A stretch of DNA of 46,365 nt from Candidatus Woesearchaeota archaeon (GTDB taxonomy: Archaea; Nanobdellota; Nanobdellia; Woesearchaeales; ARS49). Each line of letters opens with the position of its first letter. Within the stretch, counting starts at the first letter, position 1. Under the pieces are notes generated by a model that worked only from the letters and a program-made list of their open reading frames with translations, did not search any database and was not told where the DNA came from. The DNA lies in contig JBFHWZ010000001.1 in NCBI GenBank assembly GCA_041599235.1, positions 1-46,365 on the forward strand. The letters are read 5' to 3'. Shown here one piece after another: positions 3,335 through 44,107 of this stretch. The position numbers were made by a program, and so were the translations under genes.

Positions 3335-4416
3335 GCTTCTATATCCGGCGTTGCTGCTTGCGCTGCACTGATGCGTGATAAGGCATTGCAGCTTTGGGCT
3401 AAGTACTTGTTCACAATAAGCGAACAACTGCTGAAATCACTGAGTTCTGATGCAAATTCTAGATAGCAGCGGTCTTTGGTTGGTTCTTCAAGCACATTTT
3501 GACATATGTTTGCATTGCGGCTGCCAATGGCAACTTCTGCATAGCAGGCATCTGCATACCTTGTTCTGCCAAGGCTTGTGCAAATAGCTATTGCTGTTTG
3601 CGGGTCAGTTGCGCTTAGTTGTGCTGCTTGTTGTACAAGCTGATCAGGTGTTTTTTCCCGCTGCACGCAGTCTTCAGCACAGCTGGTTTTGGTTTCTCCT
3701 GCTTCGCAAATCAAGTTACCACAGCAGGGCTTAATAGCTACGTGTGTGCATTTGCCTTTGACACAGCTGTCTTGCGTGCATGCATTTAGATCGTCACAAT
3801 CTGTTGGGCAGTCCAGAGCTGCTGGTTTAAGTTCAGGGGTTGCTCCTAGCACGGGCTGTGCTTGAGTGGGCTCTACAATGGCAAAGTTCAGTTTAGCTTG
3901 TGCTGTTTTGCCGTCATAGGTTGCGATTGTGGTGAGTGTGTACTGGCCAGGGTTGAGCGTGGATGGCAGAGGAATTTGTGTTTGCGTGCTTAATGCTTGA
4001 GCTACAGTTACTGTTTCTTGACGTTGTGCAACCTGCTGGTTAGCAGCATCAACAATGGTATGCTGCAATTGCACAGTCACGCGAGCTTCTTGGTCACTGG
4101 AAAGCTGTTTGAGAAACGTAAATCGGTCTCCTGCAGCAAGTTGTGTTTGTGTTGCTTGCAAGCTCAGCTCAACATATTTTGGCTCTGGAGCAGTAAACGT
4201 AAGAATCGCTATGCCTATGAGCACTAACACGAGAATGCCTGCGCCAATCAAGGCAAGCGTTTTTGCTGAAATAACTTTTCGCTGACCTGTTTGCAAGGCC
4301 TGGTCTACCTGACGCGGATCATATCCTGCTTGGATAAGTTGTGTGCGTATGGTGCCTGCATCATAGCCTGCAGCGCGCAAGCGGCTGATATAATCAATAA
4401 TTGACTGTTCCACCAT
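3331..4416 (-). CDS. Bitopic membrane protein: short cytoplasmic N-domain, one TM helix, beta-rich ectodomain, Cys-rich C-terminal modules
   Basis: TM segment LALIGAGILVLVLIGIAILTF. Cys-rich stretch CPTDCDDLNACTQDSCVKGKCTHVAIKPCCGNLICEAGETKTSCAEDC, followed by spaced single Cys repeats. TATA AAAGATTTAAATAT on the minus strand at 4443-4456. Confidence 0.6.
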   Translation of the reverse strand: MVEQSIIDYISRLRAAGYDAGTIRTQLIQAGYDPRQVDQALQTGQRKVISAKTLALIGAGILVLVLIGIAILTFTAPEPKYVELSLQATQTQLAAGDRFTFLKQLSSDQEARVTVQLQHTIVDAANQQVAQRQETVTVAQALSTQTQIPLPSTLNPGQYTLTTIATYDGKTAQAKLNFAIVEPTQAQPVLGATPELKPAALDCPTDCDDLNACTQDSCVKGKCTHVAIKPCCGNLICEAGETKTSCAEDCVQREKTPDQLVQQAAQLSATDPQTAIAICTSLGRTRYADACYAEVAIGSRNANICQNVLEEPTKDRCYLEFASELSDFSSCSLIVNKYLAQSCNALSRISAAQAATPDIEA

Positions 4417-10253: not shown

Positions 10254-11668
10254 TAGAATCTCATCATGGTTACTTGTCGGGTTTGTAGGTTAATGACCGG
10301 AACAGTGCCGGGGTCTGGTTCGTGGCCTACTTTTTCTTGAAAGTCAGTTTTGCTTTGCCAGCAGCTGCCGGCGATGATTGAGGTGCTGCGATAGTTAAGC
10401 GCAGCTGATTTGTGTATGTGCCCAGCAACAAATAAGTCTGGTTGTTCACTTATGACTAAGGGGTCACGTGTTGGGTCAGGGATGTAGAGCGTTGAGGAGT
10501 GGGTTGGTGCAAGGTGTCTGCGCTGTAGCAAATAGCGCATAATCAGGCCAACACGATCGCTTATGTGCGCGCCGCTGTCTCGTATGGACGGAACTATTTC
10601 GCCATAGTCATCAAAACTAAAGCCATGATAGGTAAGCACGGTAAAGCCTGAAAAGTCCTGCGATGCGTGGATGTTAACAACGCAAGGGTTGGTAACATGG
10701 ATTATGTTGGGTAGTGTATAGAGTGCTTCTGCGTGCTTTTTTGGAAGCGGTGGCTGCGGCTCTGAAATGCGCAAAGCATCGTGATTGCCTGCACCCATAA
10801 TAATGTGGACGTCTTTACGTATTTTTGAAAATAATTCTGCTGCTTTATCATATTGCTGCTTGATGTCAGTGAGTGCGAGCTCTTCTTCTTGGCCGGGATA
10901 GATGCCAACACCATCAACAACATCACCGCAAACAAACAAGTACTTTACTTTTTGCGCCATTGCTTGTTGTTCAGGGGTGCCAGCTGAGCCATTGAGCCAA
11001 TCAACGAACTTGAGAAACCGGTCTTCAAGAAACTTTTTTGAGCCAACGTGCACGCAGGCAAGTACGGCTGCATAGGCTTCGTCCGGTGCTTTTTTCAGTT
11101 CGCTGGTCAGGGGAATGTCTGGATAAATGATGTTGTTGCCAAAGATAATATTATCGCCTGTGCTGCCGGTCAGCCCAATCACTTCATCCAGTGTTGTGTC
11201 TTTTGCAACGTCATATAGCTCTTTGTTTTTTTGGGTAACAATGACCCGTATTTGGCCTGAGGGATCCTCAAGCATCATGCTGACGTTCTTGTTTTTAGTG
11301 ATGTGTTTGTCGACCACCAACCCGATAACAGCGACGGTCTCGCGATCTTGTTTGTGCTGCAGGCGCGCTATGGAGGTCAGGTTTTGAAGCTCTTGGCGAC
11401 CTGCCAGCATTTTTTCAAGTGCTTTATAGCGCTGATTGAAGTACTTAACAAAATCTTGGACAGTGTGTTTTTTTGATTGTGGCAGATAATTGTTTACGAT
11501 AAGCACTTGGCCGCGTTTTTCAAATGAATTTTGTTTGAGCACTATGGTGTTGTATGCCTGCTCAAGCTCGGTCTGGTCATTGAGCCGCTCCAAAAAGTCC
11601 GGTTTGACCACGATATTCCTGCTTAACAGTTGTGTTACAATCTCTTTTTTCTTTTGTTCGGTGTTCAT
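10253..11668 (-). CDS. polB: DNA polymerase II (PolD) small subunit DP1 (calcineurin-like phosphoesterase/exonuclease)
   Basis: Motifs FVCGDVVDGVGIYPGQ, GAGNHD, LTYHG and VAGHIH. ATGA overlap with the cdc6 stop. Confidence 0.93.
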   Translation of the reverse strand: MNTEQKKKEIVTQLLSRNIVVKPDFLERLNDQTELEQAYNTIVLKQNSFEKRGQVLIVNNYLPQSKKHTVQDFVKYFNQRYKALEKMLAGRQELQNLTSIARLQHKQDRETVAVIGLVVDKHITKNKNVSMMLEDPSGQIRVIVTQKNKELYDVAKDTTLDEVIGLTGSTGDNIIFGNNIIYPDIPLTSELKKAPDEAYAAVLACVHVGSKKFLEDRFLKFVDWLNGSAGTPEQQAMAQKVKYLFVCGDVVDGVGIYPGQEEELALTDIKQQYDKAAELFSKIRKDVHIIMGAGNHDALRISEPQPPLPKKHAEALYTLPNIIHVTNPCVVNIHASQDFSGFTVLTYHGFSFDDYGEIVPSIRDSGAHISDRVGLIMRYLLQRRHLAPTHSSTLYIPDPTRDPLVISEQPDLFVAGHIHKSAALNYRSTSIIAGSCWQSKTDFQEKVGHEPDPGTVPVINLQTRQVTMMRF

Positions 11669-12873
11669 AATGCTAAGGCTTCTTTAAGTGCTGAAAACAT
11701 CTTGGTGTTGAGTTCGGCGTTTTGCATGAGCTGTATCTCGCGCGTTCTCCCATATCTTCCTTTTGATATGACTTTTGCCTGAATAATGCCCAGCATGTCA
11801 AACTCAGCTATGATGTCTGAAATGCGCCGTTGCGTCAGGGGCCGCAGCGCTGTTTGCTTGCAGAGCTGTTGGTACACATCATACACTTCCCCTGTAAATA
11901 CGTGTTTTTGTTTGTTATTACACACGTGAAAAACGCCGTACAGTGTTAGCTGGTATTGTTTTGGTTGTGTCCTGATGATGTCAAGAACGCGGTCTTTTTC
12001 GATTTTGTGTTCTGCTGCGTCAAGATCAGCGATAGCAACAGTTTTGGTGCCTCCCCGTTCTGCAAGTTCTCCTGCAACGCGCAGCAGTTCCAGTGCTCTG
12101 CGGGCATCGCCGTGTTCGCGTGCTGCGTACGCTGCACATTTTTCAAGAAGGCCCTGTTCAAGTGCTTCAGGTTTGAATGCTTCTGCAGCGCGGTGCTCAA
12201 GTATGTTTTTGATTTGCGGCGCATTATAGGGTGGAAATACTAGTTCTTCTTCTGACATGCTGCTTTTGACGCGCGGATCAAGCTGTTCTGTGAAAAGCAA
12301 GTCGTTGCTTATACCGACAATGCTTATTTGCGCTTTCTGAAGCTCTGCATTGATTCTCGTGAGATTATATAGTAGCTCATCACCGACTTTACCAACAAGC
12401 TGGTCGATTTCGTCTAGAACCAGTAAAATAACTTGTTTGGTTGTGTCAACTGCTTTGTAAAAAATAGTGTATACTTCTTCTGTTGGCAGTCCTGTTGGTG
12501 GTATAGTTTTGTTAAATTCCCTGGCAAGCTGTGCTATGAGCCGGTATTCGGTATCTGCAACTTTTTTTAGCTTGCAGTTGACATAGACTATTTTCAGCGG
12601 CAGCTCGCGCTCTTCTGCCATTTTACGTAATTGCTCTGAGACGTATCGTGCCGTTAGTGTTTTACCTGTCCCTGTTTTTCCATAAATAAATACATTTGAT
12701 GGTTTTTCACCCCGCAAGCTTGGCGCAAAAATGCTGGCAAGCTGCTGCATTTGTTCATCACGGTGAAAAATAGTGGGGGGAAAGTAGTTTGCCTGTAAGC
12801 AGTTTTTGTTCTTAAAAAGAGAGTCTTTTGTTAAGAACTTTTCAAAAAAATTTGCCATCCCCTTTTCTTCCAT
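11665..12873 (-). CDS. cdc6: Orc1/Cdc6 replication initiator
   Basis: Walker A GKTGTGKT, Walker B LVLDEID, and a C-terminal winged helix. TATA-like TATTTAT 12897-12903 is centred 27 nt from ATG 12873. Confidence 0.93.
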   Translation of the reverse strand: MEEKGMANFFEKFLTKDSLFKNKNCLQANYFPPTIFHRDEQMQQLASIFAPSLRGEKPSNVFIYGKTGTGKTLTARYVSEQLRKMAEERELPLKIVYVNCKLKKVADTEYRLIAQLAREFNKTIPPTGLPTEEVYTIFYKAVDTTKQVILLVLDEIDQLVGKVGDELLYNLTRINAELQKAQISIVGISNDLLFTEQLDPRVKSSMSEEELVFPPYNAPQIKNILEHRAAEAFKPEALEQGLLEKCAAYAAREHGDARRALELLRVAGELAERGGTKTVAIADLDAAEHKIEKDRVLDIIRTQPKQYQLTLYGVFHVCNNKQKHVFTGEVYDVYQQLCKQTALRPLTQRRISDIIAEFDMLGIIQAKVISKGRYGRTREIQLMQNAELNTKMFSALKEALAL

Positions 12874-12954: not shown

Positions 12955-13120
12955 TATTATTATGTTTAATGATTCTTAATTATAATTAATTATATATATC
13001 AATATATATAAATTTCTATATGGAAATAAATTAAAAAGATAAAGAAAAAAGAGTTTTTAACATATTTTTAAATATATATATCACAAAACAACTTTTAAAG
13101 TGTTTTTTTGATTTTTGAGC
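12955..13120. other. AT-rich duplex-unwinding-element candidate of a chromosomal replication origin (oriC)
   Basis: Long runs of A/T only (TATTATTATTATG..TTATAATTAATTATATATATCAATATATATAAATTT..). Non-coding, flanked by ORB-like elements, and directly upstream of cdc6-polB-polC. Confidence 0.65.
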
Positions 13121-17849: not shown

Positions 17850-18833
17850 ATGGACCATCAGGAGACTATTCTGGCACTGGCACAGGCTAAGCCGCTGCTG
17901 CCCGTGCACGTCGCCAAGGCGCTGAAAACCAACTCATTATTTGCTTCAGCCATGCTGTCTGAATTGGCCAGCAAAGGAAGACTGCATATTTCACGCCTTA
18001 AAATTGGCAGCTCACCCCTCTATTATATACCTGAAAAAGCAGCGCAGCTGCAGGACTATGCAGGGTATTTAAATGAAAAAGACCAGCGAACCTTCCAGCT
18101 CCTAAAAACACGCAAAGTGCTGCGGGATATGGACCTTGACCCGCTGACACGGGTGAGTGTTAAAGAGATTAAAGATTTTTCACGGCCGCTTGAAGTGACG
18201 CTCGGAGACAAAAAAGAGATTTTTTGGAAGTTCTATCTAACGGGCGATGAAGAAGCTGCAGTGGCTATTAAGCAGTTGCTGCAAGGAGAACTTGCGCCGC
18301 AGCCACCACCTGCTCCACCAGCTCAGCCCGTTGCAGCACCTGAACAGCAAACACTGGTACAACAGCAAGTGCACGAGCCGCCACAGCCAGTGCAGGAAGC
18401 AGTAGCACAACAGAAAACACTTGAGCCGCCCAAGCCAGCAGTGCAAGCAAAACCCAAACGGCGTAGCATAAAGCAAGCGCTCAAACCAAAGCCAGCGCCA
18501 AAGCAAAAGCGCGCAGCGCCAGTTGCTGATGCCTTCATGGAACAGCTCATTACCTATTTTGCTAAAAACAGCATTCGTATCATTGAGCAGAATACTGTGC
18601 GTAAAAACGCAGAAAGCGATTTTATTATTGAAATGGATTCTCCAGTCGGTCCCCTCACCTATTATTGCAAGGCGAAAAACAAAAAACGCGTGAGTGATGC
18701 TGACTTAAGCGCAGCACTTGTGCAGGGGCAACTGAAAAAACTGCCTGTTGCGTTTATTACCACAGGCCAATTAAGCAAAAAAGCAGACGAGGTTCTGAAA
18801 CAGCTAAGTGGATTGACTGTTAAGACAATATAA
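17850..18833 (+). CDS. Hypothetical DNA-binding protein: tandem winged-helix-like N-region, Pro/Gln/Ala-rich linker, C-terminal Mrr-like PD-(D/E)xK nuclease-fold domain
   Basis: wH-like VHVAKALKTNSLFASAMLSELASKGRLHISRLKIGSSPLYYIP. Low-complexity stretch at about 18290-18500. C-terminal SDFIIEM..YYCKAKNKKRVSDADLSAALVQGQ..PVAFITTGQLSKKA resembles the restriction-endonuclease (Mrr_cat) pattern. Leaderless TATA at about 17822-17830. TAATG overlap with fen1. Confidence 0.55.
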   Translation: MDHQETILALAQAKPLLPVHVAKALKTNSLFASAMLSELASKGRLHISRLKIGSSPLYYIPEKAAQLQDYAGYLNEKDQRTFQLLKTRKVLRDMDLDPLTRVSVKEIKDFSRPLEVTLGDKKEIFWKFYLTGDEEAAVAIKQLLQGELAPQPPPAPPAQPVAAPEQQTLVQQQVHEPPQPVQEAVAQQKTLEPPKPAVQAKPKRRSIKQALKPKPAPKQKRAAPVADAFMEQLITYFAKNSIRIIEQNTVRKNAESDFIIEMDSPVGPLTYYCKAKNKKRVSDADLSAALVQGQLKKLPVAFITTGQLSKKADEVLKQLSGLTVKTI

Positions 18834-26754: not shown

Positions 26755-27723
26755 ATGACAAGCACGATTATCTGGACTGAGAAGTATCGTCCTAAAGATT
26801 TTGCTGAAATCAAGGGGCAGCAAGAGATTGTCAAGCGCATCAAGGCATTGGTTGCGCAAAAGAACATCCCTCATGTGCTGTTTGCAGGACCTCCCGGAGT
26901 GGGCAAGAGCACACTGGCCTTGGTTATGGCGCGCCAGCTGTTTGGTGAGGACTGGCGGGCAAATTTTCTTGAACTGAACGCTTCTGATGAGCGCGGCATT
27001 GATGTGGTGCGCAACAAGGTTAAGGATTTTGCACGAACAAAAGCCATTGGCGATGTGCCGTTTAAGCTGATTTTTTTGGATGAATGCGATGCGCTCACCA
27101 AAGAAGCGCAACAGGCCCTGCGCAGAACCATGGAGAATTATACCAATACCTGTAGATTTATTCTTGCAGCCAACTACAGCAGCAAAATCCTTGACCCTAT
27201 TCAGTCACGCTGTGCATTATTCAGGTTTAAGCTGCTTGAGACGAAAGATATGCATGCTTTGATTGATACTATTGCCAAGCAGGAAGGCTTGACCGTTGAT
27301 GACGCAGCAAAAGCCGCGCTGGTGCAAGTGAGTGAAGGTGATTGCAGGCGCTTTGAAAACTTATTGCAAAGCTGTGCAGCTGTTGACAAGAAGATCACTG
27401 ATAAATTGGTCTTTTCCATAGCAAGCGTAGCGCAACCGCAGGACATTAAGCAAGTGGTAGAGCTTGCACTGGCAGGTGATTTTATTCGTGCGCGTGAAAA
27501 ACTCTTGTCAGTCATGCTTGAGTATGGACTTTCAGGCATTGATGTGGTGAAGCAATTGCAAAAAGAAATCTGGACTGTTGAGCTTGCCAAACGTGATAAA
27601 GTGGCTGCAATTGACAAGTGCGGTGAAATTGAGTTTCGGTTAGTAGAAGGCAGTGATGAGTTTGTGCAGCTTGAGGCATTACTGGCACATCTTACGACGC
27701 TTGGCCAGAGCTCTTCACAATAA
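26755..27723 (+). CDS. rfcS: Replication factor C small subunit
   Basis: WTEKYRPK, GPPGVGKST, FLDECD, SRC, all contiguous (no intein). Start moved to ATG 26755 because the TATA at about 26714-26725 lies before it and after the track's TTG start. Confidence 0.93.
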   Translation: MTSTIIWTEKYRPKDFAEIKGQQEIVKRIKALVAQKNIPHVLFAGPPGVGKSTLALVMARQLFGEDWRANFLELNASDERGIDVVRNKVKDFARTKAIGDVPFKLIFLDECDALTKEAQQALRRTMENYTNTCRFILAANYSSKILDPIQSRCALFRFKLLETKDMHALIDTIAKQEGLTVDDAAKAALVQVSEGDCRRFENLLQSCAAVDKKITDKLVFSIASVAQPQDIKQVVELALAGDFIRAREKLLSVMLEYGLSGIDVVKQLQKEIWTVELAKRDKVAAIDKCGEIEFRLVEGSDEFVQLEALLAHLTTLGQSSSQ

Positions 27724-28627
27724 GTTCTGTTTGAACAAATTCTTCGTAATCATACAAGGTTTCTATGCTGACAATTTGCTCAAAGTCTGTTGCAGTGGTT
27801 ACGGGCTGTGTGCAGGTTACTTTCTTGGAACCACCAAAGATGGTTGCGAAACCTTCAGCTCCTGTTGCCGTACTGGCAAGGCCCGTGCAGGTCAGCCCAG
27901 GCAGGTTGGTATTGACTTTGACCCAGACCCTGTTTTCTTTTTGCCGCGTTGTTCTATCGCAGATGCTGTTGAACTCAAAGACGCTGCCGGTGCCTGCATT
28001 GACTAAGTCAAAGCTAAAGCCGACTTTGTCTCGTGCTCTGGTTGCTTCCTGGAAGTTCTGTATCTGAATAGGGCCGCCTGAGTTGTACAATGGCTTTGCG
28101 CCAGTTACCTCGCAAATGCCTCCTTCTCGGGGATTAAGCAGGTTTCTTCTGATGCATATTTTGCTGACTGCATTAGTGCCGTAATTATAGCAGTATTCTG
28201 CGCGTACCGGGAAGCGTGCTGTTGCACCTGCAATGGATGGCAGGTAATTTAAGCCAAGGAATTCAACAAACACTGGCGGGCTCGGCAGTACTTCGCCAGT
28301 TGCCAGTTTTTGATTTGCCAGTAAGTTGTCAGGTGCTCCTGCAATAAGCTCTGCTTCTGTTTTGGCAAATTCTGCAGGATTGATGCCTGAAAGCTTGATT
28401 CTGATGTTGGTGCTCGGCACTTCATACTCTCCTTTGTTGGCTGCCTGTACAACCACATCAAAAGGATCAACGCCACTATCAAACACTTCAGAGCGCAGCT
28501 CAACAAAGCTTGCTACCACGCCTTGAGTGCCGCCTAAGTAAGGACTTTCAATATCAACTGTTTTTTCTTGGGTTTTACAGCCTACTAAGAGAACAAACAA
28601 TGCGATTAATAATAGGAGCTTCCTCAT
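27692..28627 (-). CDS. Lipobox surface protein, paralogue A (two CARDB/Ig-like-looking halves, six conserved Cys)
   Basis: MRKLLLLIALFVLLVGC lipobox. Motifs shared with B and C: GTQGVVASF, AANKGEYEV, YCYNYGTNAVSKICI, GGPIQIQN, DLVNAGTGSVF, final LYDYEEF. Own TATA on the minus strand at 28656-28664. Confidence 0.75.
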   Translation of the reverse strand: MRKLLLLIALFVLLVGCKTQEKTVDIESPYLGGTQGVVASFVELRSEVFDSGVDPFDVVVQAANKGEYEVPSTNIRIKLSGINPAEFAKTEAELIAGAPDNLLANQKLATGEVLPSPPVFVEFLGLNYLPSIAGATARFPVRAEYCYNYGTNAVSKICIRRNLLNPREGGICEVTGAKPLYNSGGPIQIQNFQEATRARDKVGFSFDLVNAGTGSVFEFNSICDRTTRQKENRVWVKVNTNLPGLTCTGLASTATGAEGFATIFGGSKKVTCTQPVTTATDFEQIVSIETLYDYEEFVQTELIVKSSGQAS

Positions 28628-28655
28628 TTTTTTAGTTTGATTACGCCTGTGTGGT

Positions 28656-28664
28656 TATTTAAAT
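28656..28664 (-). promoter_or_regulatory. BRE/TATA (minus strand AAAGATTTAAATA) for lipoprotein A
   Basis: Centre is about 33 nt upstream of ATG 28627, implying a leader of about 6 nt. It lies in the 43-nt gap after the stop of paralogue B. Confidence 0.55.
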
Positions 28665-28670
28665 CTTTCG

Positions 28671-29624
28671 TTAATAAATAGGGAGTATTTCAAGCTCTTT
28701 GAAGATGGTATTTCGATAGCCATAGCTTAAGATAACCGTAATGGGGGTGGTGTATGCATCTTCACCAAAGGTCATGAACTCGCAGAAGATGCTACCGCGG
28801 CCATTGGTTAAGCGCATGTGGCCATCGTCAAGGGGCTTGCACGTTGGCCTGATTGAGGTGCCACTTATAATAACGTCCTCTACCATAACATAATCAACTT
28901 CATCAAAGCCCAACGGTGTTGTAAAGGGGCTGCACTTATCCAAATAGTCAGCACCAAACCTAAAGACATCGCCGCTACCTACATTATGTACGCTGATTTT
29001 GAATCGTGTTCTGCGCGGGCTGGGCTCTACTTCAATATCAGAAACTGCTATGGGTGCGCCTTGGGTTCCTAAGCTCACTGCAGTCGGATAGCATACTTTT
29101 TGTTTAGTGGTTGCAGATAGTGGCTGTGGGTCAATGCAGATGGTTTCTGAAGCTATTGTTTTATAGCCATAGCAGGCTGTTGCGAGAATGCGTACTGGGA
29201 AGCGGTCAATGTTTTTTGCCCGCAAACTGCGTATGACGCCTTCAAATGATGCGCGGTCAAGTGCACCTTGAGGAACAAACTGGCTTCTGCCTTCTAAGAA
29301 CGGCAATGAATAGCCGCTGGTTCGTATGTTGGCAATAATGCTTGGATCAAATCCTGATATATAGATACGGTCGCCAGGGCCGCCAACATCATAGGTGCCT
29401 TTATTTTCCACATCAACAACTGCAAGGAACTTTTCATTGTCAAACAAGCGTTGTGGCGGCAGGTTGGGCACAAAGCTCATGCGCAATCCTTCGCTGCCAG
29501 TGCGAAATTCTGGATAGAAGTTTTCTTTGCTTGGCGCTTGGCCCCCTGGCTGGCAGCCAGCTAAGAGCAGTACTGCAAGTATGAGCATCACCTTTTTGTT
29601 CGTAAGCAGTTCTTTTTTGTTCAT
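28671..29624 (-). CDS. Lipobox surface protein, paralogue B
   Basis: MNKKELLTNKKVMLILAVLLLAGC lipobox. Shared motifs: GSEGLRMSF, VENKGTYDV, ACYGYKTIASETICI, QGAPIAVSD, SVHNVGSGDVF, LSYGYRN. Confidence 0.75.
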   Translation of the reverse strand: MNKKELLTNKKVMLILAVLLLAGCQPGGQAPSKENFYPEFRTGSEGLRMSFVPNLPPQRLFDNEKFLAVVDVENKGTYDVGGPGDRIYISGFDPSIIANIRTSGYSLPFLEGRSQFVPQGALDRASFEGVIRSLRAKNIDRFPVRILATACYGYKTIASETICIDPQPLSATTKQKVCYPTAVSLGTQGAPIAVSDIEVEPSPRRTRFKISVHNVGSGDVFRFGADYLDKCSPFTTPLGFDEVDYVMVEDVIISGTSIRPTCKPLDDGHMRLTNGRGSIFCEFMTFGEDAYTTPITVILSYGYRNTIFKELEILPIY

Positions 29625-29651
29625 TTTTTAAATACGTCAGAAATTCCACGG

Positions 29652-29660
29652 TTATAAATA
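29652..29660 (-). promoter_or_regulatory. TATA box (minus strand TATTTATAA) for lipoprotein B, bracketed by a 9-nt inverted repeat
   Basis: Centre is about 32 nt from ATG 29624, implying a leader of about 5 nt. CAGAAATTC (29638-29646) and GAATTTCTG (29670-29678) flank it. Confidence 0.5.
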
Positions 29661-29685
29661 TCTAGCGGTGAATTTCTGAGCGTGC

Positions 29686-29707
29686 TCAAAAACCCTGCGG
29701 TTTTTGA
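29686..29707 (-). terminator. Hairpin with T5 run directly after the stop of lipoprotein C
   Basis: TCAAAAACC-CTGC-GGTTTTTGA forms a perfect 9-bp stem with a 4-nt loop, 8 nt downstream of stop 29715-29717 on the minus strand. Confidence 0.4.
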
Positions 29708-29714
29708 CATTTTT

Positions 29715-30635
29715 CTAGCGCGCTGGTTTTTGAATAGTATAACTGGTTATAACATTATCAACATACCCATAGTCCATGGTGATGGTCAAGGGCGCAAGGT
29801 AGGTTCCGTATGATTGGTGAATGCCTGTAGGAAGCCTGCAGGCCACTTTGTTTTCTCCTTGGCGCAAGCGCAGGGTTTCAGGAGTGCATTGCAGATAGTC
29901 ATCGCTTAAGCGCGCTCGCACACGTACTTGGTTAAGATTTTGCAAGGGCCTGCCTGAGCACGCGTCTAAGAGCTGTCCGGTGCTGACTACTTGGCCCCTG
30001 CCGCGGTTTTCAATGTGTAGCACAAATTCAGGAGTGATGGTATCAGGGTTAGCATGCGGTAACATGCGCGGTTCAATGTTGGTTACTGCAAGTGGCGCTC
30101 CTTGGCCGCCAGCAAGACTTTGCGCTGTTGGCGCGCAGGTCTTTTGCGGAACATCACCGGTTAAATCTGTATCAACGCAAGTGGTGAGTGTTGCAGTGGT
30201 CTTGTATGGGTAACAGGCTGTGAACTGCAGGGTGGTGCTGTAGCGTTCAGTTAAAGGATCCAGTTTGCCGTTGATTATTCTGAATCCTATGCGTTCTTCA
30301 GTTCCTTGCGGATAAAAAACACTTTTACCTTGCACTGAAAAGCTGCCTGCATCAGAATCAAGCACTGTTGCATACTGGCGTTCAGTGGAAAGTTTGTAAT
30401 ATCCGCCTTGGACATCGCTTGAGCCCTTGTTGTGCAGTATCAGTGTTGCCTGCGAATAGGTTTCTTCGTACACTTCAGGGGGAGGAGCACCTTGCATGAA
30501 CTCCATGACAATGCCTTCAGTGCCATAATTGATTTCAGGCACGTCTATTGTTTCTTTTTCCTCTGGTGGTGCCATTTGCAAAGCACCACAGCCAGCAAGG
30601 AACAAGACTATGATAAGCACGAGCATTTTTTTCAT
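29715..30635 (-). CDS. Lipobox surface protein, paralogue C
   Basis: MKKMLVLIIVLFLAGC lipobox. Shared motifs: GTEGIVMEF, LHNKGSSDV, ACYPYKTTATLTTCV, QGAPLAVTN, HIENRGRGQV, MDYGYVDN. ATGA overlap with the upstream gene. Confidence 0.75.
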   Translation of the reverse strand: MKKMLVLIIVLFLAGCGALQMAPPEEKETIDVPEINYGTEGIVMEFMQGAPPPEVYEETYSQATLILHNKGSSDVQGGYYKLSTERQYATVLDSDAGSFSVQGKSVFYPQGTEERIGFRIINGKLDPLTERYSTTLQFTACYPYKTTATLTTCVDTDLTGDVPQKTCAPTAQSLAGGQGAPLAVTNIEPRMLPHANPDTITPEFVLHIENRGRGQVVSTGQLLDACSGRPLQNLNQVRVRARLSDDYLQCTPETLRLRQGENKVACRLPTGIHQSYGTYLAPLTITMDYGYVDNVITSYTIQKPAR

Positions 30636-32098
30636 GGTTGCTGTTCCACCCTAAAGCCAGTTTGTGTTTCATAGAGGTATTTGTAGTTGGCACTGACTTT
30701 GAAATTGTTGATTGCCAAGGGTGATTCTCCGAGCAAGTCTTGGGTGCTTTCTATCTCAGTATGAGCTCTAAAGCTATAGATGCTCACGTTCTTGAGCTTG
30801 GCAAGGTCTGCTGCAGGAAGCTGATAGACATTAACTAAAGCAGGATCACACACTGCTTGCTCGTCAGTATCTAATGAACTGCAGTCAACAGCTTGCACAT
30901 CAATGCCGTTGATGTCAGTGACTTTCAGCCCTTTAGGAACGTAAAATATGAGCTTGGTTATTTCTTTTATTTTGCCTGTCCAGGCATTGGTGACTGAAGC
31001 GCCAATAGTTGGCCCTTTTTCTCCTTGTGCAATGCCAATTGGCTGTGAGCCAAAGCCCATGCCAATAGCTACAGGTCCTGAAGTGTAAATCGTAGTGGGT
31101 TGTTTGTCTGGAATGCCTTCTAGTGGGTCAACTTGCCGCCTGCGGTAATCACGCAAGCGTTCTTTGTCCATAAAGTAGGCTTTATGATATGCTCGAGTGC
31201 CAAAGTCAAAGTCTGCGCTGAGCTTTCCTGTGTAATAGCCTTCTGGCAAGTTATCGAAGACGCAGTCAATGTCTGTTTCTTCAAACGTCTCCACCCTAAA
31301 CGTTTTTGTTGGGATGATTGCATTTGCAGGGGTGTTGTCTGCTTTGCATTCTATGTTGATGGTTATGGGCTTGTCTAAGGTTTCTGCTTTGAGGTTTGCA
31401 AAGAGCGTGACTGGCTCATTGACAAAGAACCTGCTTGCTGCAGGCCGCAGATTTTGCAGGAACACTCCTAGGCGTTTAGTGGCTGCTTGATCAACTGTGC
31501 CAGTGTAGTAATCACCTTTAGCTATCGCTATTTCTTCTTCAACTGTTTTCCAGAACTGTGCTCTGAAGCCTATGAGTCCTTGCCACATATTTACCGTAGC
31601 TTGGTTGACTGCGTGCAGGAAATATCTGAGCACCATACCCGGACTGAGCATGGGCACATCAGGAATATCATAATACTGATTTGCATAGTCCATGATAGGC
31701 TCACCAAATGAGAAAATCATAAGGCCAAACCAAAACAATAGGAAAAATAAGCCAAACAAGCGCACTTTATTTTTGCCGATTAAGTACCAGACCCATATGG
31801 GGTTGACCATGAAAAACATGATGCTTGTTGCAGTGGTGAACTTCGCAACAAACCCTAAGAGCGGCAAAGCAAGTATGGAAATGAGGGTAACAAAGAATAG
31901 TTCTTTTCTGCTTTCTTTGATAATGCCGCTTGCAAGCCAGGCAACAAATACATATCCGAAAATCGCAACGGACCAGCCAGCAATTGTTATGGGTCTGCCA
32001 GGATGGCGAAGAAAACTGTCAAGGATGTGAACAAGAATAGCAAAAATTAAAACTAAGTATCCTTTCGGCTCTCTATCAACAGGGGTTCTATCAGCCAT
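30632..32098 (-). CDS. Polytopic membrane protein (about 5 N-terminal TM helices) with ~350-aa ectodomain
   Basis: Hydrophobic segments lie between residues ~14 and ~130. The ectodomain has 4 Cys and motifs loosely echoing the lipoproteins (FDFGTRAYHKAY, SGPVAIGMG, VTNAWTGKI, ANYKYLYE). It starts 1 nt after the stop of the upstream gene. Confidence 0.7.
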   Translation of the reverse strand: MADRTPVDREPKGYLVLIFAILVHILDSFLRHPGRPITIAGWSVAIFGYVFVAWLASGIIKESRKELFFVTLISILALPLLGFVAKFTTATSIMFFMVNPIWVWYLIGKNKVRLFGLFFLLFWFGLMIFSFGEPIMDYANQYYDIPDVPMLSPGMVLRYFLHAVNQATVNMWQGLIGFRAQFWKTVEEEIAIAKGDYYTGTVDQAATKRLGVFLQNLRPAASRFFVNEPVTLFANLKAETLDKPITINIECKADNTPANAIIPTKTFRVETFEETDIDCVFDNLPEGYYTGKLSADFDFGTRAYHKAYFMDKERLRDYRRRQVDPLEGIPDKQPTTIYTSGPVAIGMGFGSQPIGIAQGEKGPTIGASVTNAWTGKIKEITKLIFYVPKGLKVTDINGIDVQAVDCSSLDTDEQAVCDPALVNVYQLPAADLAKLKNVSIYSFRAHTEIESTQDLLGESPLAINNFKVSANYKYLYETQTGFRVEQQP

Positions 32099-32099
32099 T

Positions 32100-33248
32100 T
32101 CATTCTACGCGTACTTCTACTTTGACAATGTTAAGTGCTGTCAAAGGAAGAATTTCAATAAAGTTATTGCCTTCAACTATAACAGGGGTGATGTCTCGGG
32201 TAAAGCGCGGTTCTCTTTGGTCAATCACATCTAATCTGCCATTAATATTTGTTTGCGCACCTTTCAATCTGCGGTCATCAACAAACTGAATATCAAGCAC
32301 AATGCTTGCAGCACCTTGCTGCACTGCATCCCACAAGCGTGGTTCAACATTGAAATAATCAATAAAGCCTTTGCTTGGCTTGAGGAAGGTCTTTAAGCGC
32401 AACTGCTCAACACCAAAGCTGCCTCTGCTTGCTCTGATGGTCAGAACATTTTTGCCCAGCTTGAGGTCTTCTTTGAAAATATCTTGCCTGTTCAGGCTTT
32501 CACAGGCAGGAACGCCTGAGAAGATGATTTCATCATTGAGGGTGATTTCCATAGCGCCAACAGTTGCTTGGCTGCAGAGCGGATAAAAGTCTAGGAATGC
32601 GCTTTCAAAATTATTGTATTCTTCTTCTGAAATAGGTATGGTTTCAAGAGCGCGTTGCTTGCGCACATCAGTTACATCACCAATGACTTTGATATCTCTG
32701 AATTCATAAGTCTTGGTTGGTATGCCAAAGCCTTGGACCTCGAATTTGAGCGTGTTTTGTTGGCGCAAGTATTCTGGTCTGATTGATACGGGCGCTGGAT
32801 TTTGAACAGTGATGCTTCCTTCAAAGATTTGGAATCCGTTGATGCTGATAACCAGGGTGCCTTTGTGCACTGGTGTTTGGAAGCTGAGCATGACATTTCC
32901 TGTGTTTGCAGGGTCTGCTACGGGAAAGGTGATTTCTTTGAATGCGTCGCCATAGAGGCCTTTTGAAATAGTGAAGGGGCTGAGCGTGGTGAGTATCTGT
33001 GCTTCGCGCCCTTCTTGTAGGTATATGTTAGGCAGGTAATGGTCGCGTTCGCGTGCTCCAACAAATTCAAGGCTGCCAACTGGTGCGAGCAAAAGCACAT
33101 TGCTGCCTGGTGCTCCTGGCGGTAGTTCTGTTATTTCTTCATCTGCTAGCAGCGCTTCGCGCTCTGCTGGTGGTAAGAAGAGGATGTAAAAGATAAAGAG
33201 AAGGGTGATGATGCCAATGAGTGCTCCTACTTGCGCCTTCTTGTTCAT
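32100..33248 (-). CDS. Bitopic (signal-anchor) surface protein with three-fold internal beta-rich repeat
   Basis: MNKKAQVGALIGIITLLFIFYILF anchor. Repeats: ISINGFQIFEG..QNTLKFEV, ITLNDEIIFSG..GKNVLTIRA, TNINGRLDVI..GNNFIEILP. Start moved from 33317 to ATG 33248 because the minus-strand TATA 33292-33299 and SD GGTGA 33254-33258 lie inside the longer ORF. Confidence 0.7.
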   Translation of the reverse strand: MNKKAQVGALIGIITLLFIFYILFLPPAEREALLADEEITELPPGAPGSNVLLLAPVGSLEFVGARERDHYLPNIYLQEGREAQILTTLSPFTISKGLYGDAFKEITFPVADPANTGNVMLSFQTPVHKGTLVISINGFQIFEGSITVQNPAPVSIRPEYLRQQNTLKFEVQGFGIPTKTYEFRDIKVIGDVTDVRKQRALETIPISEEEYNNFESAFLDFYPLCSQATVGAMEITLNDEIIFSGVPACESLNRQDIFKEDLKLGKNVLTIRASRGSFGVEQLRLKTFLKPSKGFIDYFNVEPRLWDAVQQGAASIVLDIQFVDDRRLKGAQTNINGRLDVIDQREPRFTRDITPVIVEGNNFIEILPLTALNIVKVEVRVE

Positions 33249-33291: not shown

Positions 33292-33299
33292 TATATAAA
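33292..33299 (-). promoter_or_regulatory. TATA (minus strand CACAAAAGTTTATATA) for the 32100-33248 operon
   Basis: About 47 nt upstream of ATG 33248, with SD GGTGA in the leader. Confidence 0.55.
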
Positions 33300-33311: not shown

Positions 33312-33329
33312 AAGCAAAAGATTTATATA
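33312..33329 (+). promoter_or_regulatory. BRE/TATA AAGCAAAAGATTTATATA for the Tyr-rich protein gene
   Basis: Identical to the 18-mer at 26370-26387. The leader carries a G6 SD at 33368-33373, 7 nt before ATG 33381. Confidence 0.6.
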
Positions 33330-33380
33330 GGGGTTTTACTATTGTTTGATAGTGAAATTCAATAGCAGGGGGGATTAGTA

Positions 33381-33776
33381 ATGAAGATACAACAGCTATT
33401 ACTTGGACTGATTCTAGCAGTGCTGCTCAGCGCGCCAGTATTTGCAAGCCACACCTATGGTTATAATTATCCAACGTATGGCGGGCACAGCTATGATTAT
33501 TCATATTCTCGCAATTACGATTACACAAGCGTAAGCGAAAACGAGTACCAGCATAGCAGGTCCTACGGCGGACCATACTATCATGCCAATGGCTACAGCT
33601 ATGATTATGGCAGAAGCAGGTCATTTACGTTTGGTTCCTATTCTGAAACAGAGCATGCCTCAGGCAACAGCTATGGCGGCTATGGTGGCAGATCATATGG
33701 CCGATATCACTATCCATACAGCAGCTATGGCAGTCCTTATTACCGTAACAGCAATTACAGATATTACAGCTACTGA
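33381..33776 (+). CDS. Secreted low-complexity Tyr/Gly/Ser/Asn/Arg-rich protein
   Basis: Signal peptide MKIQQLLLGLILAVLLSAPVFA|SH. By my count the mature ~108 aa contain 30 Tyr and no Lys, Leu, Ile, Met, Trp or Cys. There is a strong promoter and SD. Confidence 0.7.
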   Translation: MKIQQLLLGLILAVLLSAPVFASHTYGYNYPTYGGHSYDYSYSRNYDYTSVSENEYQHSRSYGGPYYHANGYSYDYGRSRSFTFGSYSETEHASGNSYGGYGGRSYGRYHYPYSSYGSPYYRNSNYRYYSY

Positions 33777-33778
33777 TC

Positions 33779-34435
33779 ATGAAACAGCAACTACTTATTG
33801 GCGCACTGGTAGTGCTCTTGGTGCTTCCTGCAGCAAGCGCTAAGGTTTTCTATTATTCTGATGAGGTTGATTATCAGGATAACCTGGCGTATGCGCACTT
33901 GAATCACTATGATGGCATTGATGCTGATGACTTTGTTGATTTTGATGATTATACTTGCGTGAGCTTAGATGACCAGCGCGCAATTGCCAATGCCAATCAG
34001 TATGACCATGTTGATCCGTGGACTGCAGCTACTATCAGCAGGCAAGACTTGAAAAAATTGTCACAGGCAGACCGCAATAGGATAGCTGATGAAAATCCTT
34101 ATGATGCTATTGACCGCGATGATGTTGACAGCTTTGATGATTTTTCATGTTCAACGTTGCGGGATTACAACGACTACGCACGAACCAATGCGTATGACCG
34201 ATATGATGAAGCTGACTTTACCCGCTTAGATCACATTGAGATTGCGCAAGAGGTTGGCAAAGACCGATACCACTTTTTTGAGCTGAGCGATTTTGATAGA
34301 TTTAACCTGAACCAGATCAGGTATAGGCCTGTTGCAAAATATCTGTATCCTGGCTATACCTATGGATGGAACGGCTATTATTATAACCAGTATGGCAGCA
34401 GAAATGCCTATCCGGTGTATGGTGCAGTTTACTAA
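33779..34435 (+). CDS. Secreted Asp-rich protein with duplicated YD-ID-DD..FDD-x-x-C module and Tyr-rich C-terminal tail
   Basis: Signal peptide MKQQLLIGALVVLLVLPAASA|K. Units YDGIDADDFVDFDDYTCVSLDD..NQYD and YDAIDRDDVDSFDDFSCSTLRD..NAYD lie 64 aa apart. Tail is YLYPGYTYGWNGYYYNQYGSRNAYPVYGAVY. The gene starts 2 nt after the preceding stop. Confidence 0.7.
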   Translation: MKQQLLIGALVVLLVLPAASAKVFYYSDEVDYQDNLAYAHLNHYDGIDADDFVDFDDYTCVSLDDQRAIANANQYDHVDPWTAATISRQDLKKLSQADRNRIADENPYDAIDRDDVDSFDDFSCSTLRDYNDYARTNAYDRYDEADFTRLDHIEIAQEVGKDRYHFFELSDFDRFNLNQIRYRPVAKYLYPGYTYGWNGYYYNQYGSRNAYPVYGAVY

Positions 34436-34468
34436 AGTTTTTTAAGCCCTTCCTGTTCTTGTTCTCGT

Positions 34469-42892: not shown

Positions 42893-43471
42893 ATGAAAGA
42901 TATTGTTTTTCCTCAGCAGAACGAGCAGGAGTTTGTTGCCATGGCCAAGAAGCTTGGCTATACTGAACTGGTATTTGCCTATGAAACGCCTGAGCAGTTC
43001 TATACTAAGCCAGCGAGCATCAAGATAAGTAATGCTGTGGTGTGTGATCCAAAAAAAGTTGAGCGCTATAGGAAGAAAGCAAGTCTGATGCTGGTAAAGC
43101 ACACAGGGCAAGACCGGTATGTGCTTGAGAAAACAAAAGCAGACATCCTGTTCGGGGTAGAAGCAACAACCGAGCGCGACAAAACCCATCAGCGGTCATC
43201 AGGTTTAAACCATATTATGTGCAAAATAGCTGAGCGTAACAAGAAAAAAATAGCTTTTGACTTTAACATGATTCTTACTGCTAAAAGCAAAGCGCGATTG
43301 CTGGGCAGGATGAAACAGAACATAAAGCTCTGCAGAAAGTACAAGGTGCAAACAGTTATTGCATCATTTGCTCAGGATCCTTTAGACATGCGCTCCCCTC
43401 AGGACCTGCAAAGCTTTTTTGTTGTGCTGGGCATGCATCCTGCAGAAGCTAAGAAATCACTCAATTGGTAA
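42893..43471 (+). CDS. rnp3: RNase P protein component 3 (Rpp30 family)
   Basis: Family-like layout: MKDIVFP..AKKLGYTELVFAY at the N-terminus and IAFDFNMIL...NIKLCRKYKVQTVIASFAQDPLDMRSPQDL..LGM at the C-terminus. Confidence 0.6.
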   Translation: MKDIVFPQQNEQEFVAMAKKLGYTELVFAYETPEQFYTKPASIKISNAVVCDPKKVERYRKKASLMLVKHTGQDRYVLEKTKADILFGVEATTERDKTHQRSSGLNHIMCKIAERNKKKIAFDFNMILTAKSKARLLGRMKQNIKLCRKYKVQTVIASFAQDPLDMRSPQDLQSFFVVLGMHPAEAKKSLNW

Positions 43472-44107
43472 GCCAAAACTGCGCCAGCATTCTTCTCGCA
43501 TGGAACGGTCCAGGATTTCAGAACAGTGCTCTGTTTCCTCTGAGCGGTACACGCCGTCTTTGATAGCAATATCTTGGCAGATTGCTTTTGCCTGCATAAA
43601 GTATTCTTCATTCAAGGTAGCTCGTGCAGTGCATGCAGCAAAGTCTTCGGGATGCTCTTCTTCGCAATAGCCTGGGTCTCTGCTTGCTTCTGCTTTGCAC
43701 CAAGAATCGTCACACAACGCAGGGTTGCCAGTAATCAAAGCCCTGCAACTATCTTGGACTTCTTCTGGTTCGCTTCTGCAAAACCCTTCATCTTTTGTTA
43801 TGATTGCTTTGCAGTAATCTGGGTCTTCCATCTGTTCGCATAAGGTCGCATCGCTATTTTTTAGTGCCAACACATACTGGTAATCATCTTGGAAGCTTTG
43901 CTCGCAAGCAGCTAAGGTGTCTGAAAAAGCAGCCTCAAAGGGAACTACTTGTGCATCAGTAACTGGTCGTTCTTGTGATGCAAATTGGATTATGACATAG
44001 ACTGCTAGAATGATCAATAGGGCTATGCCAATGCTTGAAATGATGATCCTGTAAGGCGCCTCTTTGTGCGGCAAAGGCGGATGCGGCAATTCATACTTCT
44101 TAGCCAT
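43457..44107 (-). CDS. Bitopic membrane protein with acidic ectodomain built from short single-Cys repeats
   Basis: TM segment IIISSIGIALLIILAVYVIIQFA. Ectodomain contains LCEQMEDPDYCKAIITKDEGFCRSEPEEVQDSCRALITGNPALCDDSWCKAEASRDPGYCEE. The leaderless TATA at 44129-44138 is centred 27 nt from ATG 44107. Confidence 0.6.
   Translation of the reverse strand: MAKKYELPHPPLPHKEAPYRIIISSIGIALLIILAVYVIIQFASQERPVTDAQVVPFEAAFSDTLAACEQSFQDDYQYVLALKNSDATLCEQMEDPDYCKAIITKDEGFCRSEPEEVQDSCRALITGNPALCDDSWCKAEASRDPGYCEEEHPEDFAACTARATLNEEYFMQAKAICQDIAIKDGVYRSEETEHCSEILDRSMREECWRSFGLPIE

Follow-up and report, generated by a model that had tools for sequence, protein, structure and literature searches.

A tyrosine-rich, apparently exported protein of Woesearchaeota with a predicted β-ribbon and an acidic partner

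Bacillus subtilis CotC and CotU are small, tyrosine-rich proteins of the outer spore coat that form higher-mass assemblies in this protective layer (PMC7944565). They are analogous in kind, though not by descent, to the product of one gene in a 46,365-nucleotide (nt) stretch of DNA (hereafter, the window) from a Candidatus Woesearchaeota archaeon (contig JBFHWZ010000001.1). That product, here called the Tyr-rich protein, is likewise small, prokaryotic, and very high in tyrosine. CotC and CotU, which the mother cell deposits, lack a Sec signal peptide and multimerize in a manner tied to oxidative cross-linking. The Tyr-rich protein, by contrast, has a signal peptide, a conserved predicted β-hairpin, and an acidic partner protein, with no oxidase gene nearby. 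Composition differs also: CotC and CotU are rich in lysine and aspartate, whereas lysine accounts for 0.3% of residues in the Tyr-rich family, and there is no sequence similarity.

Mussel foot and diatom cell-surface proteins are small and secreted, contain >10-25 mol% tyrosine along with abundant glycine, serine, and asparagine, and serve at surfaces or in adhesion (PMC4220933). However, these proteins are lysine-rich, and the mussel examples require conversion of tyrosine to 3,4-dihydroxyphenylalanine (DOPA), whereas the Tyr-rich protein has no lysine and phenylalanine can replace its tyrosine. No sequence similarity to the Tyr-rich protein is seen, and no tyrosinase is encoded in the window or in the neighborhood conserved among related loci. 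A different comparison comes from the stickers-and-spacers grammar, in which tyrosine and arginine promote cohesion and lysine weakens it (10.1101/2021.01.01.425046; PMC10888811). Like FUS-family and prion-like domains, the Tyr-rich protein combines tyrosine and arginine stickers with glycine, serine, asparagine, and proline spacers, avoids lysine, and has a tail predicted to be disordered. Those domains, however, are intracellular, eukaryotic, and composition-evolving, whereas the Tyr-rich protein is archaeal, apparently exported, and retains invariant positions.

Two further comparisons concern structure. The hairpins of β-pore stems, phage tails, and flagellar rings (PDB 5ec5, 5jzt, 6uwr, 6psn, 7cbl) resemble that predicted for the Tyr-rich protein in having strands of about 25 residues, stable only in an oligomeric sheet or barrel. 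Unlike the pore stems, the Tyr-rich hairpin has neither a hydrophobic face nor cap domains, belongs to a mature protein of 109 residues, and matches at E >= 3e-3 with a TM (template modeling) score of about 0.2. The curli csgBA genes encode a small secreted strand-turn-strand protein, rich in serine, glycine, asparagine, and tyrosine, beside a second secreted assembly protein. Here, by contrast, the partner is acidic, predicted to be helical, and not a paralogue; imperfect strand-loop-strand repeats and dedicated secretion genes are lacking; and no curli homology was detected in Pfam.

The Tyr-rich family is best placed as an orphan of the broad aromatic-rich, secreted structural class, with an architecture (ribbon, tyrosine-rich tail, and acidic partner) that is undescribed. 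A literature search for tyrosine-rich secreted proteins in archaea or in DPANN lineages found no description, in agreement with an earlier appraisal of the window from its letters alone (hereafter, the sequence-only reading), which knew of none from archaea. Database comparisons are similarly empty. The Tyr-rich protein has no significant match in Pfam-A, NCBIfam, PHROGs, or PADLOC; 24 family members compared with Pfam at E <= 10 give single-member chance hits only; and a family profile finds no match among PDB sequences at E <= 10.

The composition of the mature chain is extreme. Its 109 residues comprise 30 Tyr, 21 Ser, 15 Gly, 8 Arg, 7 Asn, 6 His, 5 Thr, 4 Pro, 4 Glu, 3 Asp, 2 Ala, 2 Phe, 1 Val, and 1 Gln; Lys, Leu, Ile, Met, Trp, and Cys are absent. 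This recount agrees exactly with the counts of the sequence-only reading (30 Tyr, the absent residues, and one Val). Tyrosine thus makes up 27.5% of the chain. Against the background of 38 other genes in the window (Tyr, 3.1%; Lys, 9.1%), the binomial probability is 2e-20 for at least 30 tyrosines in 109 residues and 3e-5 for zero lysines. Among 161 six-frame open reading frames (ORFs) in the window, this one ranks first in tyrosine content and the downstream partner ranks second. Tyrosines spaced as Y-x-Y occur about twice as often as in shuffled sequences (11 vs 5.7, P = 0.012).

Comparison with the closest orthologue (locus L002; 70% protein identity) shows that this unusual ORF behaves as a gene. 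Nucleotide differences fall 26/18/55 at codon positions 1/2/3, and a synonymous tyrosine codon has been switched at 7 of the 26 tyrosines conserved between the two. Given this pattern, the alternative-frame ORFs (33583-33843 on the plus strand and 33427-33624 on the minus strand) are not the gene and are ruled out. An identical gene is present in a separate, independent Logan assembly, and gene callers have called the gene on other contigs. It is therefore strongly supported that the Tyr-rich protein is encoded in this frame, under purifying selection. The sequence-only reading had argued for a real gene, and the codon-position pattern, the conserved promoter-like box and Shine-Dalgarno element, and the homologues bear this out; the two outcomes it had named as fatal, a gene in another frame and lack of conservation in relatives, both run against the conservation data.

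Homologues were not found directly. A single-sequence word-index search with the Tyr-rich protein returned nothing (the collection does not contain this exact sequence), so the search began from the downstream gene, 33779-34435. Eight homologues of this partner gene were found, and each contig encodes, immediately upstream, a signal-peptide protein of 133-167 residues with 20-28% tyrosine. A profile built from ten Tyr-rich proteins then recovered 23 database members, all unnamed or "hypothetical". When 1.84 billion cluster representatives were scanned exhaustively with HMMER, 12 clusters passed the threshold and 11 were genuine, a number that marks the family as tiny. (The remaining hit, P0037, is a repeat protein of 2081 residues from a bacterium, in which the motif GRSRDFAFG is reiterated, and not a relative.) Finally, a metagenome scan seeded with the neighboring 382-residue protein yielded 14 more loci, with the pair present in 12 of the 13 informative ones. 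In all, 49 distinct Tyr-rich homologues were collected.

These proteins share more than composition. The phmmer scores are 34-147 bits to real members, whereas none of 900 shuffles preserving both the composition and the signal peptide exceeds 20.6 bits. By this measure, the family similarity is true homology. Sixteen columns are invariant in 24 sequences, and many tyrosine, arginine, glutamate, and phenylalanine positions are among the invariant ones. The named members all come from Candidatus Woesearchaeota or Nanoarchaeia metagenome-assembled genomes, and the assemblies with family members represent sediment, groundwater, soil, and hot springs; as sampled here, the putative operon is confined to a single Woesearchaeota/Nanoarchaeia (DPANN) clade.

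The amino-terminal signal peptide has the expected layout: a basic n-region beginning MK, some 14 hydrophobic residues as the core, and small residues at positions -3 and -1. Position -1 is occupied by Ala in all 38 homologues compared, and position -3 by Val or Ala in 37 of them, which supports the earlier placement of the cleavage site after VFA. AlphaFold models this segment as a helix. Both the sequence features and the -3/-1 conservation are those of a Sec/signal-peptidase-I substrate, and export of the Tyr-rich protein is strongly supported.

Most of the mature chain is predicted to fold. An AlphaFold2 model built from 24 family sequences contains two 26-residue strands with pLDDT (predicted local distance difference test) scores of 70-88, and the hairpin covers about 60% to two thirds of the mature chain. 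A scan of strand registers in 49 sequences found a unique optimum at i+j=133, where 244 of 1171 cells (20.8%) pair opposite charges and none pairs like charges; all other registers reach at most 14% opposite-charge cells, usually with like-charge clashes. The optimum is the register implied by the AlphaFold2 model. In the family consensus, with window numbering, the resulting ladder runs R42-E91, R44-E89, E/D47-R86, V/T49-F84, V51-F82, R/H52-D/E81, E53-R80, E55-R78, and H/R58-D75. (The window protein has D47-S86 at the third rung.) Residues E53, R78, and R80 are invariant in 49 of 49 sequences, and E55 is present in 48, with one gap. Together, these results strongly support a model in which approximately the first 60 residues of the mature protein form a two-stranded ribbon, held by Glu-Arg salt bridges between the strands along with a small patch of Val and Phe.

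Cysteine distribution provides additional support for the hairpin turn. Mature chains contain no cysteine in 35 sequences and exactly two in 14, and in 13 of these 14 the two residues, spaced 5, 7, or 12 apart, flank the predicted turn. Such bracketing fits a disulfide-stapled turn in an exported protein, and a disulfide at this position in some lineages is strongly supported. The two faces of the ribbon differ chemically: one presents Tyr/Phe with the invariant arginines (R78 and R80, along with R86), and the other presents Ser, Asp, and Glu. Neither face is hydrophobic. A divergent subfamily (loci L012, L018-L020, L022, and L029) has a longer Cys-bracketed turn (C-x11-C, SCGYYDYDYYGSxC), and its partner protein is shorter and lacks the PYYEPY...YPLYGYG tail.

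The carboxyl-terminal tail, in contrast to the hairpin, is predicted to be disordered (AlphaFold2 pLDDT about 40). It contains hardly any lysine or aliphatic residues, and Y109, Y111, P112, Y120, Y126, Y129, and Y131 are conserved. In most members, the last 60-70 residues carry the conserved motifs YxYPYYDVGT, DYRPFSDYY, SPYYxPYRYSRVG, and a terminal YLPYGY-COOH; the window lineage, together with L002, has lost the DYRPFSDYY...SPYYxPYRYSRVG module of some 35-40 residues. The sequence-only reading had likened the whole protein to (G/S)Y(G/S) low-complexity sequences. This holds for the carboxyl-terminal third, which is sticker-like (Tyr, Arg, Gly, Ser, and Pro) and predicted disordered, but not for the rest, a position-conserved predicted hairpin whose homologues separate clearly from shuffled sequences. 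Neither conservation of composition in place of positions nor disorder throughout, the marks of a FUS-type low-complexity domain, characterizes the protein; tail residues 98-131 alone fit.

Across the family, mean composition (%) is Y 22.4, S 17.6, R 8.8, G 8.2, D 7.1, K 0.3, L 0.9, and I 0.5. Tyrosine content in the 49 members is 22.7 +/- 3.1%, and total aromatic content (Y+F+W) varies less, at 26.2 +/- 2.1%; the Y and F contents correlate negatively (r = -0.75). In the P0034 lineage (locus L017, 5841-6935), about half of the tyrosines have become phenylalanine, leaving 10% Y and 12% F, and the L017 partner also shows Y-to-F changes (YVFFFSDE, RPFYEPYDF). Because Y and F trade off in this manner, aromaticity appears to be conserved rather than the phenol, which argues against obligatory dityrosine chemistry.

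The Tyr-rich gene has a constant companion. In 25 of 25 distinct loci read with both genes, it lies directly upstream of the partner gene. The intergenic gap is -4 to +3 nt wherever the starts are unambiguous, implying coupled translation; larger apparent overlaps in L013 and L024 reflect start-codon choice. The sequence-only reading had pointed to a downstream partner with a tyrosine-rich tail, and the partner does end in such a tail, with tyrosine as its last residue. Obligate pairing of the Tyr-rich protein with an acidic partner, in what appears to be a translationally coupled two-gene operon, is firmly supported.

The partner contains an internal duplication of about 64 residues (residues ~42-105 and ~106-170), the two copies being 40% identical over 55 residues (E = 0.004). 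Each repeat has the pattern NxYDxIDxDD...FDD(Y/F)xC, in which C60 and C124 are invariant. The AlphaFold model of the partner is helical and of medium quality only (mean pLDDT 55, with 70-86 over residues 60-140), and a fold search with it returned nothing better than E = 6. Nine homologues compared with Pfam at E <= 10 gave no match and contain no canonical EF-hand, dockerin, or Excalibur loop (DxDxDG type). The one NCBIfam match, Rv0361_Cterm, is sub-threshold (28.9 bits vs a cut-off of 37), and the partner profile, like the three upstream proteins, matches PDB sequences at chance level only (E >= 0.18). The sequence of the Asp-rich NxYDxIDxDD loops suggests that they bind cations.

Short motifs recur in both tails. 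PYYxPY occurs in 20 of 49 Tyr-rich proteins (0.09 expected from shuffles) and in 15 of 28 partners (0.01 expected), and YxPYG[YF]-type motifs in both tails are likewise far above shuffled expectation. In the window lineage, the tail of the Tyr-rich protein (33672-33773) is without the module noted above, and the partner tail (34331-34432) is different and longer, YLYPGYTYGWNGYYYNQYG...YPVYGAVY. Aromatic tail material may have shifted between the two proteins in a compensatory manner, although this is one event only.

The pair adjoins a divergently transcribed cluster of five genes (Table 1). All seven genes of this block encode exported or membrane proteins, and none has a match at curated thresholds in Pfam, NCBIfam, PHROGs, or PADLOC; sub-threshold matches are mostly to signal peptides. 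The five cluster genes have no family match, the lipoproteins matching the libraries weakly and through their signal peptides alone. Wherever the flanking sequence suffices, the cluster is found in synteny with the pair, answering a check that the sequence-only reading had proposed for the lipoprotein genes.

Table 1. The gene pair, its predicted elements, and the adjoining cluster (positions in the window; residue numbers refer to the encoded protein).
Feature	Coordinates	Strand	Remarks
Three paralogous lipobox proteins (306, 317, 311 residues)	27692..30635	-	Bacterial-style LAGC, LAGC, LVGC after signal sequence; synteny conserved
488-residue protein	30632..32098	-	Hydrophobic multi-helix N-terminal part, large C-terminal domain; synteny conserved
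382-residue N-terminally anchored protein	32100..33248	-	First gene of divergent envelope cluster; adjoins the pair in every locus with enough flank
Second TATA-like box (TATATAAA on plus, TTTATATA on minus)	33292..33299	-	Putative promoter of divergent five-gene envelope cluster
A-rich BRE (B recognition element)-like stretch	33314-33321	+	Immediately upstream of the box at 33322
TATA-box-like element TTTATATA	33322..33329	+	52 nt 5' of ATG; putative promoter of two-gene operon
Shine-Dalgarno-like GGGGGGAT	33368..33375	+	5 nt before ATG
Tyr-rich gene	33381..33776	+	131 residues; signal peptide plus 109-residue mature chain
Predicted signal peptide, residues 1-22, MKIQQLLLGLILAVLLSAPVFA	33381..33446	+	Signal-peptidase-I-type cleavage after V20-F21-A22 (V-F-A/S)
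Predicted long β-hairpin, residues 36-97	33486..33671	+	Strands 36-61 and 72-97, turn 62-71
C-terminal tail, residues 98-131, ending ...SPYYRNSNYRYYSY	33672..33773	+	Tyr/Gly/Ser/Arg/Pro-rich; shortened relative to family
Stop codon TGA of Tyr-rich gene	33774..33776	+	2 nt before partner ATG
Partner gene	33779..34435	+	218-residue protein, predicted exported; signal peptide residues 1-21, ASA/KVFYY; 33 Asp
Oligo-T run TTTTTT	34438..34443	+	2 nt past partner stop codon, before Pelota gene; read from sequence

What might such a pair do? The predicted ribbon, with two 26-residue strands and no hydrophobic core, could not stand alone and would need partners. Outside the cell, its aromatic and arginine surfaces and its tyrosine-rich tail would pack on further copies and on the partner protein, through aromatic-aromatic and Tyr-Arg contacts, and the Asp-rich partner might bind divalent cations. 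The envelope would thereby gain a structural layer, cement, or attachment material held together non-covalently, possibly acting together with the divergently encoded anchored protein, membrane protein, and three lipoproteins. A non-covalent associating role is favored because the ribbon needs partners and because the composition follows the rules of Tyr/Arg sticker cohesion. That the Tyr-rich protein is an exported, self- or hetero-associating, non-covalent structural component of the envelope or cell surface is the preferred reading; predicted structure and sequence together bring it close to, though still short of, an even chance.

Several observations weigh against it. The case for assembly itself comes from sequence and a predicted hairpin, and the strand register comes from one AlphaFold model (24 sequences) plus one sequence test. 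The two proteins agree in having or lacking the PYYxP-type motif in 23 of 25 loci (12 with both, 11 with neither, and 2 discordant), a count that ignores phylogeny. A profile of partner tails scores real Tyr-rich proteins no higher than shuffles; because of this, the tails can be said to share short motifs but not demonstrable homology. Most Tyr-rich members are acidic, as is the partner (isoelectric point, pI, about 5), so a simple charge-driven complex is not expected; complex coacervation of oppositely charged partners is rejected on the same grounds. The genomic context is also equivocal. The flanking housekeeping genes for RFC, Pelota, TrmB, and PheRS are equally syntenic in the clade, and the synteny of the lipoprotein cluster may consequently be inherited gene order and not a functional link. 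Moreover, the related locus L030 (4814-7158) keeps the cluster and Pelota without the pair at that position.

Three other roles deserve consideration. In the first, the pair binds a surface: flat Tyr/Arg and Ser/Asp/Glu arrays on its two sides, together with the Asp-rich partner, would recognize a solid or polymeric ligand, for example a lattice of mineral or cations, a glycan, or nucleic acid outside the cell. The two chemically distinct hairpin faces, the conserved ESxSE/ESE motifs, and the 33 aspartates of the partner, arranged in four NxYD...D-x-D-D loops, all accord with this role, as does the origin of members in sediment, groundwater, soil, and hot-spring assemblies. However, neither protein matches a known carbohydrate-, metal-, or nucleic-acid-binding family, the canonical EF-hand, dockerin, and Excalibur motifs are lacking, and the genomic context points to no ligand. 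Binding of this kind is an unlikely reading of the pair.

A second possibility is that the Tyr-rich protein is a disordered glue or matrix, akin to FUS or the mussel foot proteins, that is hardened by dityrosine or DOPA chemistry. Precedents exist in CotC and CotU (PMC7944565) and in mussel foot and diatom proteins (PMC4220933), and 27.5% tyrosine with Gly, Ser, and Arg spacers and no lysine, along with the predicted disorder of tail residues 98-131, would suit such a material. Yet two thirds of the mature chain is a position-conserved predicted hairpin, and the Y/F trade-off (r = -0.75) includes a lineage with 10% Y and 12% F. Furthermore, no oxidase, peroxidase, tyrosinase, or laccase is encoded in the window or conserved neighborhood, the regions covered here. 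These archaea, moreover, are generally regarded as anaerobic fermenters. Dityrosine cross-linking, one of the roles floated by the sequence-only reading, is weakened by the conservation of aromaticity and not of tyrosine and by the lack of a nearby oxidase, and hardened glue of either chemistry is quite improbable. The other roles floated there, as glue, matrix, amyloid-like fibre, or mineral binder, are conceivable.

A third possibility, with a similarly slim chance, is that hairpins oligomerize edge to edge into a β-barrel tube or pore, a conduit or host-attachment device for which the partner would be cap or chaperone. The only Foldseek matches to the model are to the stem hairpins of lysenin, aerolysin, iota/CDTb, and anthrax PA pores, phage tail and portal tubes, and flagellar LP/MS rings, and a coreless 26-residue hairpin would need lateral partners. 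In addition, DPANN archaea are thought to be host-dependent, by a mode of connection that is unknown (10.1101/2023.10.27.564410). However, the matches are weak (best E = 3.4e-3, TM about 0.2, nothing at E <= 1e-3) and reflect a generic long-hairpin shape. Neither hairpin face is hydrophobic, making membrane insertion unlikely, and on this ground the pore-forming-toxin reading is rejected as far as a membrane pore is concerned; there is also no cap or receptor-binding domain. A soluble tube assembled from such hairpins is conceivable, though the fold matches to it are weak.

The idea that the ORF is spurious, or that the true gene lies in another frame, draws on the extreme composition and on the absence of the exact protein from a large protein collection that holds its neighbor, but it is already refuted by the codon-position pattern and by 49 distinct homologues with conserved signal peptide, motifs, and synteny, some gene-called on other contigs, and is almost certainly wrong.

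That collection comprises 15 billion proteins; the exact Tyr-rich protein (33381-33773) is absent from it, although it includes a neighbor from the same NCBI contig. Annotation of that NCBI record may have overlooked the gene or filtered it out, and ORFs of extreme composition may be systematically under-called.

The preferred reading of a non-covalent structural component admits a bolder form, which is doubtful: Woesearchaeota-type DPANN archaea would build from the ribbon protein and its acidic partner an extracellular structure not seen before, either an aromatic "zipper" sheet or a hairpin tube. The adjacent cluster of lipoproteins and membrane protein would anchor it, and it would serve in envelope cohesion or host attachment. 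If true, this would be the first tyrosine-rich matrix protein of the Archaea, and would embody a new structural principle, a charge-zippered single-layer ribbon with an aromatic tail. DPANN lineages make up a large share of archaeal diversity, and their envelopes and means of host attachment are almost entirely unknown. For example, not one DPANN archaeon has an experimentally determined S-layer protein (10.1101/2023.10.27.564410). The locus offers a compact, conserved, and tractable pair of small, apparently exported proteins, with five more envelope genes alongside, within the chromosome's informational core. Protein science may also find interest here, in a long ribbon with a readable Glu-Arg ladder and in an extracellular Tyr/Arg sticker tail that obeys the composition rules of eukaryotic condensate domains. 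Should the protein self-assemble, aromatic-sticker materials would extend to the Archaea and provide a handle on the envelope biology of uncultured lineages; should it not, the family would be a lineage-restricted orphan of modest importance.

The putative control elements of the operon are conserved. For the TATA-like box ahead of the Tyr-rich gene, the sequence AA(G/A)xTTT(A/T)TA(A/T)A is kept at the same position in six loci and is near-identical in L002. The second, oppositely oriented box is invariant in 6 of 6 aligned intergenic regions and lies 44 nt from the start of the gene for the 382-residue protein. Judged by sequence, both boxes presumably serve as promoters. The G-rich block immediately before the ATG is conserved in all aligned loci. 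Thus, the promoter and Shine-Dalgarno element proposed by the sequence-only reading both persist in relatives, across the six-locus alignment and in L002. The oligo-T run past the partner gene is a possible archaeal terminator.

Locus L030, from a more distant relative, provides a natural absence of the pair that is usable for comparative genomics. There, the gene for the 382-residue cluster protein lies directly beside Pelota, with a 95-nt gap. Nor does the pair occur in a 2.6-kb insertion that separates TrmB from Pelota and by appearance encodes ATP-grasp/CoA-ligase-like proteins.

The window belongs to the informational core of an archaeal chromosome, with genes for TBP, MCM, PolD, Cdc6, TFE, Hjc, FEN1, RFC, Pelota, TrmB, and PheRS. 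Three further ORFs of some size among these informational genes (3331-4416, minus strand; 17850-18833, plus strand; and 43457-44107, minus strand) have no Pfam match at E <= 1e-5, and ARAGORN found no tRNA gene over the whole window (1-46365). An AT-rich stretch at 12972-13108 contains overlapping palindromes and a 21-nt direct repeat. It sits in a 420-nt intergenic region by the Cdc6/Orc1 gene (11665-12873, minus strand) and the PolD genes, and from its sequence is a plausible replication origin.

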